Source: Candidatus Nitrospira inopinata (GTDB lineage: Bacteria > Nitrospirota > Nitrospiria > Nitrospirales > Nitrospiraceae). Taken from it: DNA of 32,000 bases. The stretch is taken from NCBI RefSeq assembly GCF_001458695.1, contig NZ_LN885086.1:630001-662000 (forward strand). Reading direction: 5' to 3'. The first letter of the stretch is position 1. Each line of letters opens with the position of its first letter. Position numbers and translations under genes: made by a program. Under the pieces are notes generated by a model. That model did not search any database, was not told where the DNA came from, and saw only the letters and a list, made by a program, of their open reading frames with translations. Shown here in pieces: positions 7,379 through 21,350 of this stretch.

Positions 7379-8740
7379 TCATGGCGATTCGCCGTGAAGA
7401 GCCAATTGGCCCAGTCTCGCGTCATCGATCGCCTCGCCAAGAATCCGCGCCGCCTCCTGTGGCGCGTGGAACCCCATCGAATTTTCCGCCTCGACGAAGT
7501 CCACCATGAACTGGGCTTTCCGCTGCAACGCCTGGGCGGTGCTCACCGCCTGGTCGCTTCGGCCGGCCGTTCGGGCCGCGGCAAGGTCGCGGATCAGCGC
7601 AATCAGCGCGTCCATGGCGCGATTGCGCAGCTCGAAGGTCCGCTGCTGAATCGTTTCCGCGCGATCCTTCAATTCGGCCTCCGGCCACTTATGGCAGGTT
7701 TGGCAGGCCCGGTTGATGTTGAGCAGGGGACTGCGGACATGGTGATCGCTGATCTTCATCGCACCTTCACGCTTGTACGGCATATGACAATCGGCGCAGG
7801 CGACACCCGAGCGGGCATGAATTCCCTGGTTCCACATTTCAAATTCCGGGTGCTGCGCTTTCAGCACTGGGGCGCCGGTTTCGGCGTGCGTCCAATCGGA
7901 AAATCGCATCTCTTCATAATAGGCGAGCATGTCATCGACACGAAGTCCCTTGGCCCAGGGAAAGACCAAACGTTTCTCCGGTCCCTGAAAATAATATTCG
8001 ACGTGGCATTGGCCGCAGACGAACGAGCGCATCTCCTGTCTGGTCGCCATCCGGTTGACGTCGTAATTCTTGACGCCTTCGTGGGCTTTCAACGCCTGCA
8101 ATCCCTCGATAAAGGCCGGGCGCGTCACGCGAAGCTGCATGGTGTCGGGATGGTGGCAATCGATGCAGGTGACGGGATGGGTCACGTGCGGCCGCGCCTC
8201 GGCGTAGGGCATGGCATTGAGCTTGGCGAACCCGGCAAAGATATCTCCGTCACCCAGCCGTTTCATCGCCGTATAGACGGACGAGTGGCATTGGAGACAG
8301 GTTCCAGGCTGCGGAGTGACGACCTGACGTTCGGTGTACGTCTGATCCTCCAGCATGTAGGCGTGGCCCCGTTCTTCACGAAAATCGTGGGCGAAGGCAT
8401 AGCCGGCCCACATGGTTTTGAGCCGGGGGTCTTCTTCCAGTCTCGATTGCGCGACCACGGAGCGGGGATCGGCCTCGGTCGGGGTCCGTGGAATCGCCTC
8501 GCTGCCGCCGAACCGAGTCCGCACTTGATCCACGGTTCTGGTGTAGGCGTCGTACTGGAACGGGAAATTCTTCCCCCATAGAGCAGGGTCGTCGGTGTCG
8601 TCGGTCAATTCGACGACGCGGAAGAACAGGGTCTTCTCTTCCTGCTTGCGCTGAAAGATCGTCACGAGCAAGGCGGTCGCCGCCACGGTCGCGATCGTCG
8701 CCAAAAGAAGCGCCACGATGAGTTTCGCTGTCACGTTCAT
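7379..8740 (-). CDS. nrfA: Pentaheme cytochrome c nitrite reductase (ammonia-forming) NrfA
   Basis: Five heme motifs in NrfA order: CLQCH, CIDCH, CGQCHVEYYF, CADCHMP, CQTCH. KAQHPE(F/Y)E motif present. ATG at 8740 with a GAGGGA SD, 14 nt after the nrfH stop. N-terminal TM/signal anchor. Confidence 0.92.
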   Translation of the reverse strand: MNVTAKLIVALLLATIATVAATALLVTIFQRKQEEKTLFFRVVELTDDTDDPALWGKNFPFQYDAYTRTVDQVRTRFGGSEAIPRTPTEADPRSVVAQSRLEEDPRLKTMWAGYAFAHDFREERGHAYMLEDQTYTERQVVTPQPGTCLQCHSSVYTAMKRLGDGDIFAGFAKLNAMPYAEARPHVTHPVTCIDCHHPDTMQLRVTRPAFIEGLQALKAHEGVKNYDVNRMATRQEMRSFVCGQCHVEYYFQGPEKRLVFPWAKGLRVDDMLAYYEEMRFSDWTHAETGAPVLKAQHPEFEMWNQGIHARSGVACADCHMPYKREGAMKISDHHVRSPLLNINRACQTCHKWPEAELKDRAETIQQRTFELRNRAMDALIALIRDLAAARTAGRSDQAVSTAQALQRKAQFMVDFVEAENSMGFHAPQEAARILGEAIDDARLGQLALHGESP

Positions 8741-8754
8741 CGTTCCCTCGCGAG

Positions 8755-9231
8755 TTACTGATGCCCGACGTCCCCATGACATCGAAGACAGGACAAGTCT
8801 TCCCGACCGACGCCGGTTACGGTCATTGCCTGCACGATGGCTGCATGGCATTTTAGACAAGCCTGTTCGGTCAGCCGGTGCATGGGCGGTGTAATTTGGA
8901 TTTCATCGAGGAAGTAACCGGTCGTAAAGGCGTAGGCATGCAGAAAACCGTACTTCGCCTTGGCGACGTATTTTTCAACGGGGCCGTCCGGCGTATGGCA
9001 GTCGTTGCACACGGCCACCGACCGGTGACTACCCTTCACCCAGCCGGCGTATTGCTCGCGCATCACGTGGCAGTTCACGCAGGCTTCCGGCTTGTCGGTC
9101 AAGTACGAGCCGCCGCGGGCATAGACGAACGTATAGACGCCGATACCGGTGAATACCCCCAGTGCGATGGCCACTGCCCAGGGCAGCAGCGGCAACGATG
9201 GCCTCCGAGCCGGCCGCCCGTTACGGATCAC
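8755..9231 (-). CDS. nrfH: NapC/NirT-family tetraheme cytochrome c quinol dehydrogenase NrfH
   Basis: Four CXXCH motifs (CVNCH, CNDCH, CLKCH, CLRCH) after one TM helix. The best start is GTG 9231-9229, which forms a GTGA overlap with the phosphoketolase stop (9230-9228). The track ORF start at 9363 would overlap the upstream gene by 136 nt. Confidence 0.88.
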   Translation of the reverse strand: MIRNGRPARRPSLPLLPWAVAIALGVFTGIGVYTFVYARGGSYLTDKPEACVNCHVMREQYAGWVKGSHRSVAVCNDCHTPDGPVEKYVAKAKYGFLHAYAFTTGYFLDEIQITPPMHRLTEQACLKCHAAIVQAMTVTGVGREDLSCLRCHGDVGHQ

Positions 9232-19249: not shown

Positions 19250-19567
19250 CTATTCTTTCACCAGCAACAGATAGACGTTGACGGCGCCGACCCCGACGCC
19301 GAGCAGGATCAGACTGATAGTCCAGCGGATGGAGTACCCCTCGACCATCCCGTCGATCCAGCGGCCGATGTAGGCGCCGGCCACAATCGGCACGGCGAAC
19401 AGCAGCCCGACGGTTCCCAGGTACACGGTCTGGGCCAGCAACGTCCGCTTGCTGCGCTCGGCGTCGCGGAGACGTTCGACGTCCCGCTCGACTTCATGTT
19501 TCAGCCGTTCCTGGTCCTTCACCGTCAGACCCCCGACGCCCCATGCCCCCGACGCCCCAGTTGCCAT
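19250..19567 (-). CDS. atpQ: AtpQ/AtpZ-like small membrane protein (ATPase_gene1 family) of N-ATPase operons
   Basis: Two TM helices with G..IGRWIDG between them. Its position between atpC and atpB fits the family. The start is uncertain: ATG 19567 overlaps atpC by 43 nt, while GTG 19522 lies 2 nt after the atpC stop. Confidence 0.7.
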   Translation of the reverse strand: MATGASGAWGVGGLTVKDQERLKHEVERDVERLRDAERSKRTLLAQTVYLGTVGLLFAVPIVAGAYIGRWIDGMVEGYSIRWTISLILLGVGVGAVNVYLLLVKE

Positions 19568-19941
19568 AACCGTCTGAGCAGTTCCTCTTGAAGCCGATGG
19601 ACACTGTCTTTGACGCTCCGCAGCTCGACCTCTTCAACGCGTAGGCGCTCATCCAAGTCGCGTGAGATTCGTTCGTAGTCATCATCGCGGAGAAACCGCC
19701 TCGTGCAGATCATCACGTGGTCGCCCGTGGCGTACAGCACGGCCTCGGGGAGCGCCAGATATTCCCACGGTCGATCCACCCGGCGAAACCGAGCGAGGCC
19801 GAACTCCAACACCGTGATCAATCGCTCATGTCCCGCCAGAATGCCGAACGACCCGGACGAATCCCGGGCGACGAAGCTGACCACCTCCTCGATCCGTTCT
19901 GTCCGCATCGCATCCTGTAGATAAAGCGTGAACGTGTTCAC
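19525..19941 (-). CDS. atpC: F1 ATPase epsilon subunit
   Basis: 138 aa in the position after atpD. GTG 19941-19939 overlaps the atpD stop 19940-19938 (GTGA). [11 protein letters not shown] motif present. Confidence 0.85.
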
Positions 19942-21350
19942 GGCGTCTCACCGGCCATGGTTCCCCGCATGTAGCAGCGGTCTTCGGGGATTTCATCGAA
20001 GCCCCCGGCCAAAAACGATTCGCAGTCCCGCAGCGTGTGTTCGAGCGGCACGGTGACGCCCTTGATCCCCGTAAATTCCGCTGTCACGTGGAGCGGCTGC
20101 GTGAGGTACCGCTGGAGCTTGCGGGCCCGCATCACAATGCGGCGGTCCGTTTCGGACAGTTCTTCAAGACCGAGCATGGCGATGATGTCCTCAAGCTCCC
20201 GGTAGCGAGCCAAGTGGTGACGGACCTCCTGGGCGACTCGGTAATGCCGCTCCCCCAGGATATGGGGATCCATCAGCCTGCTCGAGGAGCGCAGCGGATC
20301 GATCGCCGGATAGAGTCCCTTGGCCGCTTGCGCCCGCGTCAAAATCACGGTCGTGTCCAGATGACTCAAGATCGCGGCCACGGCCGGGTCGGTCATGTCG
20401 TCGGCCGGCACATAGACGGCCTGGACAGAGGTAATGGTTCCCTTCGTCGTCGAGGCGATACGATCCTGGAGTTCGGCTACCTCCGTCAGCAGCGTCGGTT
20501 GATAGCCGACTGTCGCCGACATCCGCCCAAGCAGACCTGAGATCTCGCTGCCGGCTTGGACGAAGCGGAAGACGTTGTCCACGAGAAACAAGACTTCTTT
20601 TCCCAATGTGTCGCGGAGGTATTCCGCGTAGGTGAGCGCCGTCAGTCCGACTCGAAATCGAATGCCCGGCGATTCATCCATCTGGCCGAACACCATGACG
20701 GTCTGGGGCATCACCCCGGCTTTCCGCATCTCATGCCACAGTTCGTGTCCCTCGCGAATCCGCTCTCCAATGCCGGCAAAGACCGACACACCCTGATGAA
20801 GCATGATGACCGCGTGCATGAACTCGGTCAGCAGCACGGTCTTGCCAAGTCCCGCCCCGGCAAACAGGCCCGTCTTGCCGCCCTTGGCGAAGGGGCAGAG
20901 CAGATCGATCACCTTGATGCCCGTCTCCAGAATACCGGTGGCGCTCGTGGTTTCGTGCAGGGGAGTTGGCGCGATCAAGATGCTGCGTCGTTCATCCCCG
21001 TCCAGCGCGTTCCCTCCATCTAAGGGATCACCGAGCACATCCAGCAATCGGCCAAGACAACGGGACGAGACCGGGACGCTCAAGGGAGCGCCGCTATCGA
21101 ACACGGGATTGCCCCGCTGGAGCCCTCCCGTGTGCTGGAGCGCAATGGCGCGCACGCAGTTTCGGTCAAGGTAGCGATACACTTCGAGGGTGTATCGTTT
21201 CCCATCGGTGGCCACGTGCAACGCCCGATGTAACGGGGGCAGTCGCGTACAGGCCACGTCGACGACGGGCCCGTTGACTTCCGCGACCGTACCGATCGGA
21301 TCGAGCGTGGCTTGACCAATTCCAATGTTTGGCCGAGTGTTGACCTTCAT
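19938..21350 (-). CDS. atpD: F1 ATPase beta subunit (N-ATPase type)
   Basis: 470 aa. Walker A AGAGLGKT, plus [24 protein letters not shown] and [11 protein letters not shown]. Confidence 0.94.

Follow-up and report, generated by a model that had tools for sequence, protein, structure and literature searches.

The locus described here raises the question of whether genes for an ATP-driven ion pump, an acetate kinase, a phosphoketolase-family enzyme and a cytochrome c nitrite reductase, which follow one another on one strand in Candidatus Nitrospira inopinata, form a single operon with a joint function. The window analysed is a stretch of 32,000 nucleotides (contig NZ_LN885086.1, positions 630,001 to 662,000), in which the string atpDCQBEFAG-ackA-xfp-nrfHA occupies positions 7379-21350. 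A first-pass annotation had described one translationally coupled string and had proposed a survival module for anoxia or energy starvation. The evidence is evenly balanced for the reading preferred here, in which the string would be a lineage-specific operon of thermophilic complete ammonia-oxidizing (comammox) Nitrospira, set within a modular energy-limitation and ion-homeostasis island that recurs in several phyla.

The junctions were read from the geometry of the open reading frames (ORFs) on the minus strand of the window. AckA was an exact match to CUQ65656.1/WP_062483186.1 and the phosphoketolase-family protein to CUQ65655.1, both from Candidatus Nitrospira inopinata. The window was 100% identical to contigs of GCA_001458755.1 and of several metagenome and read-set assemblies. 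The genes run in the order atpD, atpC, atpQ, atpB, atpE, atpF, atpA, a broken atpG, ackA, an xfp-like gene, nrfH and nrfA, and the gene identities first named were borne out at family level by Pfam and NCBIfam:

19938-21350, minus strand: atpD, first gene, beta subunit of an alternate (N-type-like) F-ATPase (PF00006 229 bits; alt_F1F0_F1_bet 604 bits, cut-off 752)
19525-19941, minus strand: atpC, epsilon subunit, GTG start overlapping the atpD stop (PF02823)
19250-19567, minus strand: atpQ, small membrane protein of the ATPase_gene1 family, 16 nt from atpB (PF09527 44 bits, gathering score 26.6)
18550-19233, minus strand: atpB, a subunit (PF00119; NF009954 333 bits, cut-off 272)
18281-18547, minus strand: atpE, c subunit (PF00137)
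17422-18213, minus strand: atpF, b subunit of 263 aa with a delta (OSCP)-like C-terminal part (PF00430 and PF00213; best NCBIfam match alt_F1F0_F0_B)
15954-17444, minus strand: atpA, alpha subunit, start overlapping atpF by 23 nt (PF00006, PF00306; NF009884 696 bits, cut-off 554)
15916-15957, minus strand: atpG 5' stub, 13 codons and a stop supplied by the insert, ATG overlapping the atpA stop (continuous with the body in the empty-site contigs L001, L003, L006, L007 and L009)
12970-13951, minus strand: atpG 3' body, gamma subunit, with a C-terminal extension of about 40 aa reaching the ackA start (PF00231)
11708-12973, minus strand: ackA, acetate/propionate-family kinase (PF00871 390 bits; TIGR00016 396 bits, cut-off 293)
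9228-11711, minus strand: xfp-like, divergent phosphoketolase-family gene (PF03894 and PF09364 above gathering score)
8755-9231, minus strand: nrfH, membrane-anchored tetrahaem quinol dehydrogenase (PF03264; four CXXCH)
7379-8740, minus strand: nrfA, pentahaem cytochrome c nitrite reductase (PF02335 456 bits; five CXXCH)

The junction geometry claimed for the string was correct at seven of the eight sites. Overlaps were found at atpD/atpC (GTGA, 19938-19941), atpF/atpA (23 nt), atpG/ackA (ATGA, 12970-12973), ackA/xfp (GTGA, 11708-11711, with AGGAGG 6 nt upstream) and xfp/nrfH (GTGA, 9228-9231, with GGAGG 5 nt upstream), and gaps of 2 nt and 14 nt were found between atpB and atpE and between nrfH and nrfA, respectively. 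The eighth site, described as an ATGA overlap of atpA and atpG, is not intact in the window: the ATGA at 15954-15957 is the start of a stub of just 13 codons, and the remainder of atpG begins again at 13951. One unbroken string is the ancestral state, free of the insertion sequence (IS), and not the state of this window, in which a transposon lies inside atpG. Four-base overlaps are the commonest junction type inside prokaryotic operons. The tight junctions and their Shine-Dalgarno sequences argue for co-transcription of the string. They do not prove it, and the atpG/ackA overlap is not conserved.

The composition of the string was uniform, with a GC content of 0.59-0.65 and a GC content at third codon positions (GC3) of 0.66-0.84 throughout, which ruled out a recent horizontal patchwork. 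In a scan of 15.4 kb, no sigma-70-like promoter was found in the native string. It picked up 10 terminator-like sites where chance would give 12.7, which is no excess; hence, the scan neither supports nor refutes internal boundaries. Folding gave no significant structure downstream of nrfA (z = -0.3), and no Rfam match in the window reached the gathering threshold.

Conservation in close relatives was explored via one scan of species-representative genomes with AckA as the query, after which all window proteins were mapped; the genome counts are lower bounds. The full string was present in at least three hot-spring comammox metagenome-assembled genomes (MAGs), namely JZ-4_Bin198, SRBZ-2_Bin184 and JZ-3_Bin7, whose AckA and xfp-like proteins were 87-89% and 94-97% identical, respectively, to those of N. 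inopinata. The adjacency is not unique to the strain, since this synteny survey found it kept in at least three other species-level thermophilic comammox genomes. At least two further MAGs, DGJ02_3_Bin65 and QZM_B4_3_Bin89, carried the ATPase genes and ackA without xfp-nrfHA. Downstream of ackA, both had genes for an M50-CBS protease, an AI-2E transporter and a GH15 glucoamylase/trehalase; cytochrome bd genes (cydAB) followed ackA in DGJ02_3_Bin65 only, and a gene for glucose-6-phosphate dehydrogenase (G6PD) lay further downstream on the QZM_B4_3_Bin89 contig. PMC10284858 describes the thermophilic clade around N. inopinata of which the full-string and sister MAGs are members. According to that paper, nrfAH occurs among comammox Nitrospira only in this clade and N. 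inopinata; nrfAH is noted there and an operon is not mentioned. The nearest AckA homologues outside the clade (at most 54% identity) had no ATPase, xfp or nrf genes alongside, among the matches listed.

Most junctions of the string were conserved in the clade. The ackA/xfp GTGA overlap and its AGGAGG were identical in the three relatives with an intact junction, and in locus L015 the xfp gene was without its 5' part, leaving a gap of 423 nt. The xfp/nrfH GTGA overlap was identical in all four relatives carrying it, and the atpA/atpG overlap was conserved as ATGA, or as GTGA in L016. The atpG/ackA junction behaved differently. At its C-terminus, the gamma subunit of N. inopinata extends about 40 residues past the family model (12970-13100). 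The extension arises by read-through of the stretch that forms a 90-nt atpG-ackA spacer in L011 and L014; hence the ATGA overlap in N. inopinata. The intact N. inopinata allele encodes a gamma subunit of 336 aa, in comparison with 282-297 aa in the relatives. As a separate observation, the nrfH-nrfA spacer of L012 (5099-5132), L014 (14208-14241) and L015 (8059-8092) holds a 14-nt tandem duplication, with GAGGGAACAATGAA present twice. The GAGGGAACAATGAA duplication doubles the ribosome-binding site and the start codon and gives a five-codon mini-ORF (MKREQ) whose stop overlaps the nrfA start.

The interruption of atpG is caused by a mobile element with the following parts:

13952-15920, plus strand: IS1-family-like element of 1,969 bp, GC 0.51, splitting atpG (8-bp target duplications at 13944-13951 and 15921-15928)
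15066-15911, plus strand: transposase of 281 aa (PF03400 DDE_Tnp_IS1 33 bits, gathering score 24.1)
13982-14254 and 14386-14748, plus strand: small passenger ORFs with no family match
14816-14911, plus strand: tRNA-like gene of 96 nt (ARAGORN, best match tRNA-Sec; Rfam RF01852 33.2 bits)
14932-14959, minus strand: promoter-like site (TTGACA, 16 nt, TG-TATATT; 11/12 matches, near-consensus extended -10)
about 14755-14805, plus strand: strong 19-bp hairpin, downstream of the promoter-like site

The element lies on the strand opposite to atpG, and all of its features are on the plus strand except the promoter-like site. Its GC content of 0.51 compares with about 0.60 around it. It resembles the IS1 family in its DDE_Tnp_IS1 transposase, the 8-bp direct repeat CGTGAATC on its flanks and its imperfect 18-bp terminal inverted repeats (two mismatches), which begin with GG, and on these features it is placed in that family. 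Classical IS1, at about 0.77 kb, is much shorter than this element of 1,969 bp. The tRNA-like gene is non-canonical: its variable arm is long, its anticodon loop, AUUCGCAAA, has 9 nt in place of 7, and its RF01852 score of 33.2 bits (E = 3e-4) is below the gathering score of 47; it was not accepted as a tRNA-Sec or allo-tRNA. An association of allo-tRNAs and tRNA-Sec-like RNAs with transposons and with toxin-antitoxin loci has been reported (Mukai et al., 2017, PMC5389517). The element is like such allo-tRNA-bearing transposons (PMC5389517) in having a tRNA-Sec-like RNA beside two small ORFs, and unlike allo-tRNA systems in the sub-threshold score and the 9-nt loop of its RNA.

The element was present in GCA_001458755.1, JGI 3300030317, ERR977406, SRR29904084 and SRR22137112, and absent from JGI 3300044998, JGI 3300045453, ERR15087778, SRR25436062 and SRR35204280. 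Whether the ATPase gamma gene is intact thus depends on the laboratory or environmental line of N. inopinata. Besides the element, no more than one base, adjoining the insertion point, distinguished the empty-site contigs L007 and L009 from the window. All five empty-site contigs (L001, L003, L006, L007 and L009) encode an intact gamma subunit of 336 aa, with its ATG overlapping the atpA stop; thus, the ATGA coupling is the ancestral state. The identical flanks and the empty sites indicate that the insertion is recent and polymorphic.

Since the gamma gene is split, the pump is probably non-functional in the reference strain. The element also probably cuts ackA-xfp-nrfHA off from the native promoter in that strain: transcripts begun upstream of atpD would reach ackA only after 2 kb of antisense IS with its 19-bp hairpin. 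The promoter-like site of the element was the best in the scanned 15.4 kb and faces the 3' part of atpG, ackA, xfp and nrfHA. It could drive these downstream genes without native control in strains that carry the element.

A further difference among the contigs lies outside the string. The differences of L001, L003 and L006 from the window, 23 substitutions and one indel of 11 bp at 24604, cluster at 23813-24866, an interval running from the last part of the kinase gene through the regulator gene into the beginning of the MscS region described below. L006 had three further substitutions, in atpA; the other approximately 20 kb of these contigs were identical to the window. The cluster looks like a recombination tract between close strains.

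The ATPase had been named an N-ATPase, and this label holds in part. In common with the atpDCQRBEFAG operons defined by Dibrova, Galperin and Mulkidjanian (2010), the genes run, atpR apart, in the order D-C-Q-B-E-F-A-G from beta and epsilon onward, an AtpQ protein is encoded (44 bits for PF09527, above the gathering score of 26.6), no separate delta gene exists, the 263-aa b subunit combines PF00430 with a delta-like end (PF00213), and the complex would presumably act as an ATP-driven ion pump. The operon differs in the missing atpR, in its c subunit, in scores below the curated cut-offs and in the metabolic and respiratory genes that follow in the same string. No AtpR (PF12966) was found in the 16 nt between atpQ and atpB, which hold no other ORF; PF12966 was detected in locus L157, so the test can detect AtpR. 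The NCBIfam "alternate F1F0" models scored below their cut-offs for beta (604/752), alpha (573/750), gamma (59/282), b (128/225), c (99/131) and a (193/302), and they were still the best NCBIfam matches for beta, b and gamma.

The ion specificity was assessed from the c subunit. It has Met at the Gln/Glu32 position of Na+-binding rings and Leu for Thr67, and helix 2 keeps Glu-Ser...Tyr, so that the alignment reads ESLAIY rather than ESTAIY and the Na+ ligand set is incomplete. The I. tartaricus sequence served as the reference in this alignment and is assumed to be correct. The c subunits of L157 and L169 have Glu at position 32 and ESTAIY, and the closest solved ring to that of the window is the H+-coupled c15 ring of Spirulina. 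Because AtpR is missing and two Na+ ligands are absent from the c subunit, the ATPase is probably an H+-coupled, AtpR-less N-type variant. The same AtpR-less order was found in L175-L177, and the variant is present in other Nitrospira and in one stromatolite contig. In the operons compared, the helix-1 Glu and Thr67 were absent where atpR was absent: the AtpR-less operons (window, L175-L177) have Met...ESLAIY, and those with AtpR shown (L157) or presumed (L169) have Glu...ESTAIY. These comparisons suggest a so far undescribed N-type subtype, common in Nitrospira and probably H+-coupled. A canonical F1Fo-type ATPase is reported in almost all Nitrospirales genomes (PMC12342949).

AckA passed its curated model (TIGR00016, 396 bits against 293; PF00871, 390 bits). 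The label xfp stood at family level and failed at every curated phosphoketolase cut-off. In Pfam, XFP (134 bits) and XFP_N (51 bits) were above gathering score and XFP_C (22.5 bits) was just under 23.4. The protein aligned over its full length with Bifidobacterium Xfp (8io6/3ai7) in an alignment read by eye, and it keeps His64, His97, His142, His320, Glu437, Ser440, Arg442, Glu479, Tyr501, Asn549, His553, Lys605 and the Asp/Asn of the thiamine pyrophosphate (TPP) motif, with differences at Gln546 and His548. The list of catalytic and cofactor residues is assumed to match that in the structural papers. On these residues, the protein is best described as a divergent member of the phosphoketolase family.

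The pair can be compared with the Xfp-AckA pair of the bifid shunt and of cyanobacteria, in which Xfp and AckA supply ATP in dark anoxic or osmotic stress. An XFP-family TPP enzyme adjoining ackA, conserved catalytic residues, a widespread pairing and a proposed role in supplying ATP when respiration is absent are common to both. The window protein is distinct in its identity of only 23-25% to the canonical Xfp proteins whose genes adjoin ackA in other loci, in scores far below the cut-offs and in forming a clade of its own, with neighbourhoods dominated by universal stress proteins (Usp), cation pumps and storage-sugar genes. Homologues of this clade at 56-84% identity were common, and the named sources were Nitrospira, Binatia, Bryobacteraceae, Blastocatellales, Thermomicrobiales and Deltaproteobacteria MAGs.

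The last two genes have the layout of nrfHA of the Wolinella/Desulfovibrio type, in which NrfH with four CXXCH motifs and an N-terminal helix is followed by NrfA, here 14 nt away. NrfH (PF03264) has a hydrophobic N-terminus, consistent with a membrane helix, and is encoded directly upstream of NrfA (PF02335, 456 bits), which has five CXXCH motifs. In contrast to the classical CXXCK of the lysine-ligated active-site haem, the first motif of NrfA is CLQCH; CXXCH-type NrfA variants are known. A further difference from the Wolinella/Desulfovibrio genes is the 4-nt overlap with a phosphoketolase-family gene, in an aerobic nitrifier. The N. inopinata genome has been credited with potential for fermentation and dissimilatory nitrate reduction to ammonium (PMC7078480).

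The company of the xfp-like clade was examined more widely by fetching 85 contexts, mapping a labelled protein set onto them and de-replicating at 95% identity, which left 72. An ackA gene lay directly upstream of xfp-like in 29 of the 56 contexts with enough upstream sequence, and nrfH, with nrfA, lay downstream in 4/49 informative contexts, among them a distant ackA-xfp-nrfH-nrfA cassette in L135/L136 (47/67/48/56% identity). A P-type cation ATPase was found near xfp-like in 18/72 contexts and Usp in 15/72. An N-type ATPase operon lay within 10 kb in two of the 72 contexts. One of them, L157 from a Gammaproteobacteria MAG, has ackA, xfp-like, a glycosidase gene and a sucrose-6-P-phosphatase-like gene, followed by atpD...atpQ, atpR, atpB, E, F, A and G. 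In the other, L169, matches to atpD...atpG lay downstream of xfp-like, and none to ackA was found. The ATPase of L157 is downstream of ackA-xfp-like, the reverse of the N. inopinata order, which speaks for an association kept by selection and not by common descent.

Other functions recurred in these neighbourhoods, namely the M50-CBS protease, GH15, G6PD, glycogen phosphorylase, phosphoenolpyruvate (PEP) synthase and a PAS-HisKA_3/NarL two-component pair. In other Nitrospira, xfp-like was accompanied by the same two-component system, Usp, a P-type ATPase, cytochrome bd, glycogen phosphorylase and PEP synthase. Function pairs recurred in unrelated lineages in different gene order, which is the pattern predicted by a functional link. 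On a separate point, Usp adjoined a P2-type cation ATPase near xfp-like in the Nitrospira-like contigs L090, L099, L102 and L161, a pairing also present in the mycobacterial DosR regulon as Rv1996-ctpF. The survival-module idea gains from the recurrent co-location and from the energy- and ion-stress surroundings of the string, and it loses from the break in the string here and the lability of the atpG/ackA overlap.

Upstream of atpD, the window contains the following genes (all from Pfam):

22265-24573, plus strand: divergent two-component system, with a membrane PAS-HisKA_3 kinase (22265-23917) and a NarL-family regulator (23914-24573)
24641-25741, minus strand: MscS
25552-26808 and 27365-28699, minus strand: two NhaP-type Na+/H+ exchangers
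28732-29625, minus strand: tandem Usp
29678-31066, minus strand: PntB of a PntAB transhydrogenase

The surroundings, with Usp, the two Na+/H+ exchangers, MscS, cytochrome bd, the transhydrogenase and the two-component system, fit an energy and ion stress island. The kinase/regulator pair adjoins the operon in L001, L014 and L016 and adjoins xfp-like in L090, L092, L096, L097 and L102, and it is a candidate controller of the string. No shared palindromic operator was found upstream of atpD and the xfp-like genes in 11 loci. The arrangement is analogous to the DosS/DosT-DosR regulon, in which a HisKA_3 kinase and a NarL-type regulator are associated with Usp, a P2-type ATPase, alternative respiration and storage-carbon genes. 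It differs from the DosR system in that the kinase has a membrane domain and PAS_3 instead of GAF haem domains, and in that no shared operator motif was found. Orthology with DosR was rejected: DevR was only the tenth PDB match, and the regulator was no closer to DevR than to VraR, NarL, RcsB or DesR. By these comparisons the regulator is a generic NarL-family member.

A 14-nt block, TGGCRYTTGGCRAC, lies at 21651-21664 (minus strand), approximately 314 nt upstream of atpD, and recurs in L011 (at 880), L014 (at 3307) and L016 (at 3430). In the alignment of four clade members it was the only well-conserved stretch of the diverged atpD upstream region, and it falls inside a hypothetical ORF on the other strand. 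It does not recur upstream of xfp-like genes, and its GG-to-GC spacing does not suit a sigma-54 promoter, a reading that was rejected on this ground. Downstream of the operon, the window holds the gene of cytochrome bd subunit I (cydA, 34-1437, minus strand) and two tandem genes for outer-membrane porins of the alginate-export family (2360-5916, plus strand), whose position is kept in L014. A protein of 385 aa (5941-7098, minus strand), encoded about 280 nt downstream of nrfA, had no Pfam match. Read by eye, it consists of repeats of about 38 residues of the type GEPRL-L-DK-GK-R, and it is 94% identical and in the same position in L014.

The preferred reading, a lineage-specific operon within a recurrent island, supposes the following mechanism. 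When oxygen respiration stops, stored carbohydrate would enter the pentose-phosphate route, and the divergent phosphoketolase would split sugar phosphates to give acetyl phosphate. AckA would convert acetyl phosphate to acetate and ATP by substrate-level phosphorylation. The alternate F-type ATPase, running in reverse, would serve as an ATP-driven pump for membrane potential and ion balance, with H+ as the most likely ion. NrfH and NrfA would drain surplus quinol electrons onto self-produced nitrite and yield ammonium, the nitrifier's own substrate. The divergent PAS-HisKA_3/NarL system would be the likely switch. The co-transcription, the direction of the ATPase, its ion, the source of the substrate, the regulation and the anoxic trigger are inferred; the family-level identities, the junctions, the insertion with its empty site, the conservation in the clade and the recurrent co-location are observed. 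A broader version can be offered only tentatively, and is on the doubtful side: the phosphoketolase clade and AckA may form a cross-phylum module that makes ATP from stored sugar on failure of respiration, to be spent by a co-encoded N-type or P-type pump, and that in thermophilic comammox bacteria has been wired to NrfHA (nitrite to ammonium in anoxia) under PAS-HisKA_3/NarL control.

Several results weigh against the preferred reading. The clade with the full string is narrow (xfp 94-97% identical), and the conservation may reflect recent common ancestry. The xfp-like protein failed all NCBIfam phosphoketolase models, with a best score of 133.5 bits (cut-off 962). Since the split of atpG does not prevent growth of the reference culture, the pump is dispensable under laboratory conditions. 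The two sister genomes have other genes after ATPase-ackA in place of xfp-nrfHA, most N-type operons sampled in other Nitrospira are without ackA, xfp or nrf alongside, and most xfp-like genes have no adjoining ATPase operon (2/72 with one). The atpG/ackA spacing is labile, at -4, about -11, +9, +15, +90 or +93 nt, and an internal promoter at this junction is possible given such lability. Since the overlap is not conserved, the ATPase genes and ackA-xfp-nrfHA could be separate translational, and possibly transcriptional, units.

A rival explanation is juxtaposition without functional coupling, in which a mobile N-type ATPase cassette came to lie beside ackA in a stress-gene island and the ATPase, ackA-xfp and nrfHA are separate units. 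The spacing range of about -11 to +93 nt, the origin of the N. inopinata ATGA in the gamma tail of about 40 aa and the cydAB, M50, GH15 and G6PD genes after ATPase-ackA in the sister genomes speak for it. The N-type operons of L175-L177 have other neighbours: GAPDH, Usp, PEP synthase and cydA follow that of L175, and TreT and PEP synthase adjoin that of L177, a kind of company that counts in favour of the preferred reading too. Lateral transfer of N-ATPase operons is known (Dibrova, 2010, as cited in PMC7784846). In spite of this, the explanation is rather unlikely. In the Gammaproteobacteria MAG the ackA-xfp-like pair again adjoins an N-ATPase, there with the modules in reverse order, 18/72 contexts have an ATP-driven P-type pump close by, no promoter-like or terminator-like site was detected between the modules in the scan, and the composition is uniform.

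It is unlikely as well that the locus is an island for salt, alkali and osmotic ion homeostasis in hot, sodium-rich alkaline water, in which AckA and phosphoketolase top up ATP and NrfHA serves mainly assimilation, as N. inopinata is without an assimilatory nitrite reductase. Two NhaP-type exchangers, MscS and Usp flank the operon, and the sucrose-6-P-phosphatase-like and invertase-like genes of L157 point to compatible-solute metabolism. Published work connects the N-ATPases of Nitrospira with adaptation to haloalkaline conditions (PMC7784846, PMC8115096), and an assimilatory role of NrfHA in N. inopinata has been suggested (PMC12342949), which counts against the preferred reading too. On the other hand, the c subunit is without the two Na+ ligands that AtpR-containing N-ATPases keep, a quinol-linked respiratory NrfH would be unneeded for mere assimilation, and the recurring cytochrome bd, glycogen and trehalose breakdown, G6PD and PEP synthase genes point to energy or redox limitation and not to salt alone.

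Finally, a role in acetate use or acetyl-phosphate signalling, with AckA working toward acetyl phosphate (for acetate uptake or phosphorylation of the NarL-type regulator) and the xfp-like protein having a non-phosphoketolase activity, is very improbable: although AckA is reversible, other comammox Nitrospira have been proposed to assimilate acetate (PMC7078480), and the xfp-like protein, which some sources name differently, fails all curated phosphoketolase models, the catalytic histidines and the TPP-binding and phosphate-site residues are kept over a full-length alignment, xfp-like is paired with ackA in about half of the informative contexts in the classic producer-consumer arrangement for acetyl phosphate, and no pta or acs gene lies in the string.

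The first-pass annotation knew of no described operon that fuses these functions, and none was found in the literature searched, which excluded the original N. inopinata genome paper. Within the same literature, no paper was found that linked these genes in one operon, treated phosphoketolase and N-ATPase together, or described the atpG insertion or the xfp-like clade with its company. The literature retrieved for N. inopinata and acetate kinase concerned the acetate kinase of the comammox MAG LK70 and not the window operon, and that for N. inopinata and phosphoketolase was unrelated to the window operon. N-type ATPases and nrfAH have been published separately in Nitrospira (PMC7784846, PMC8115096, PMC12342949, PMC10284858).

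The survey defines a phosphoketolase clade that accompanies stress proteins and ATP-driven cation pumps, and an AtpR-less N-type ATPase subtype without two Na+ ligands, neither of which was described in the literature searched. A practical trap follows for work on the organism, as the reference genome and several matching datasets carry the transposon in the gamma gene and others do not; genotyping of cultures is needed. The survival of strictly aerobic nitrifiers through oxygen-free periods is an open question in nitrogen-cycle microbiology and matters for wastewater process control. In the only comammox organism in pure culture, the locus would provide a testable circuit for such survival, which may run from sugar via acetyl phosphate and ATP to an ion gradient, with nitrite as the electron sink.

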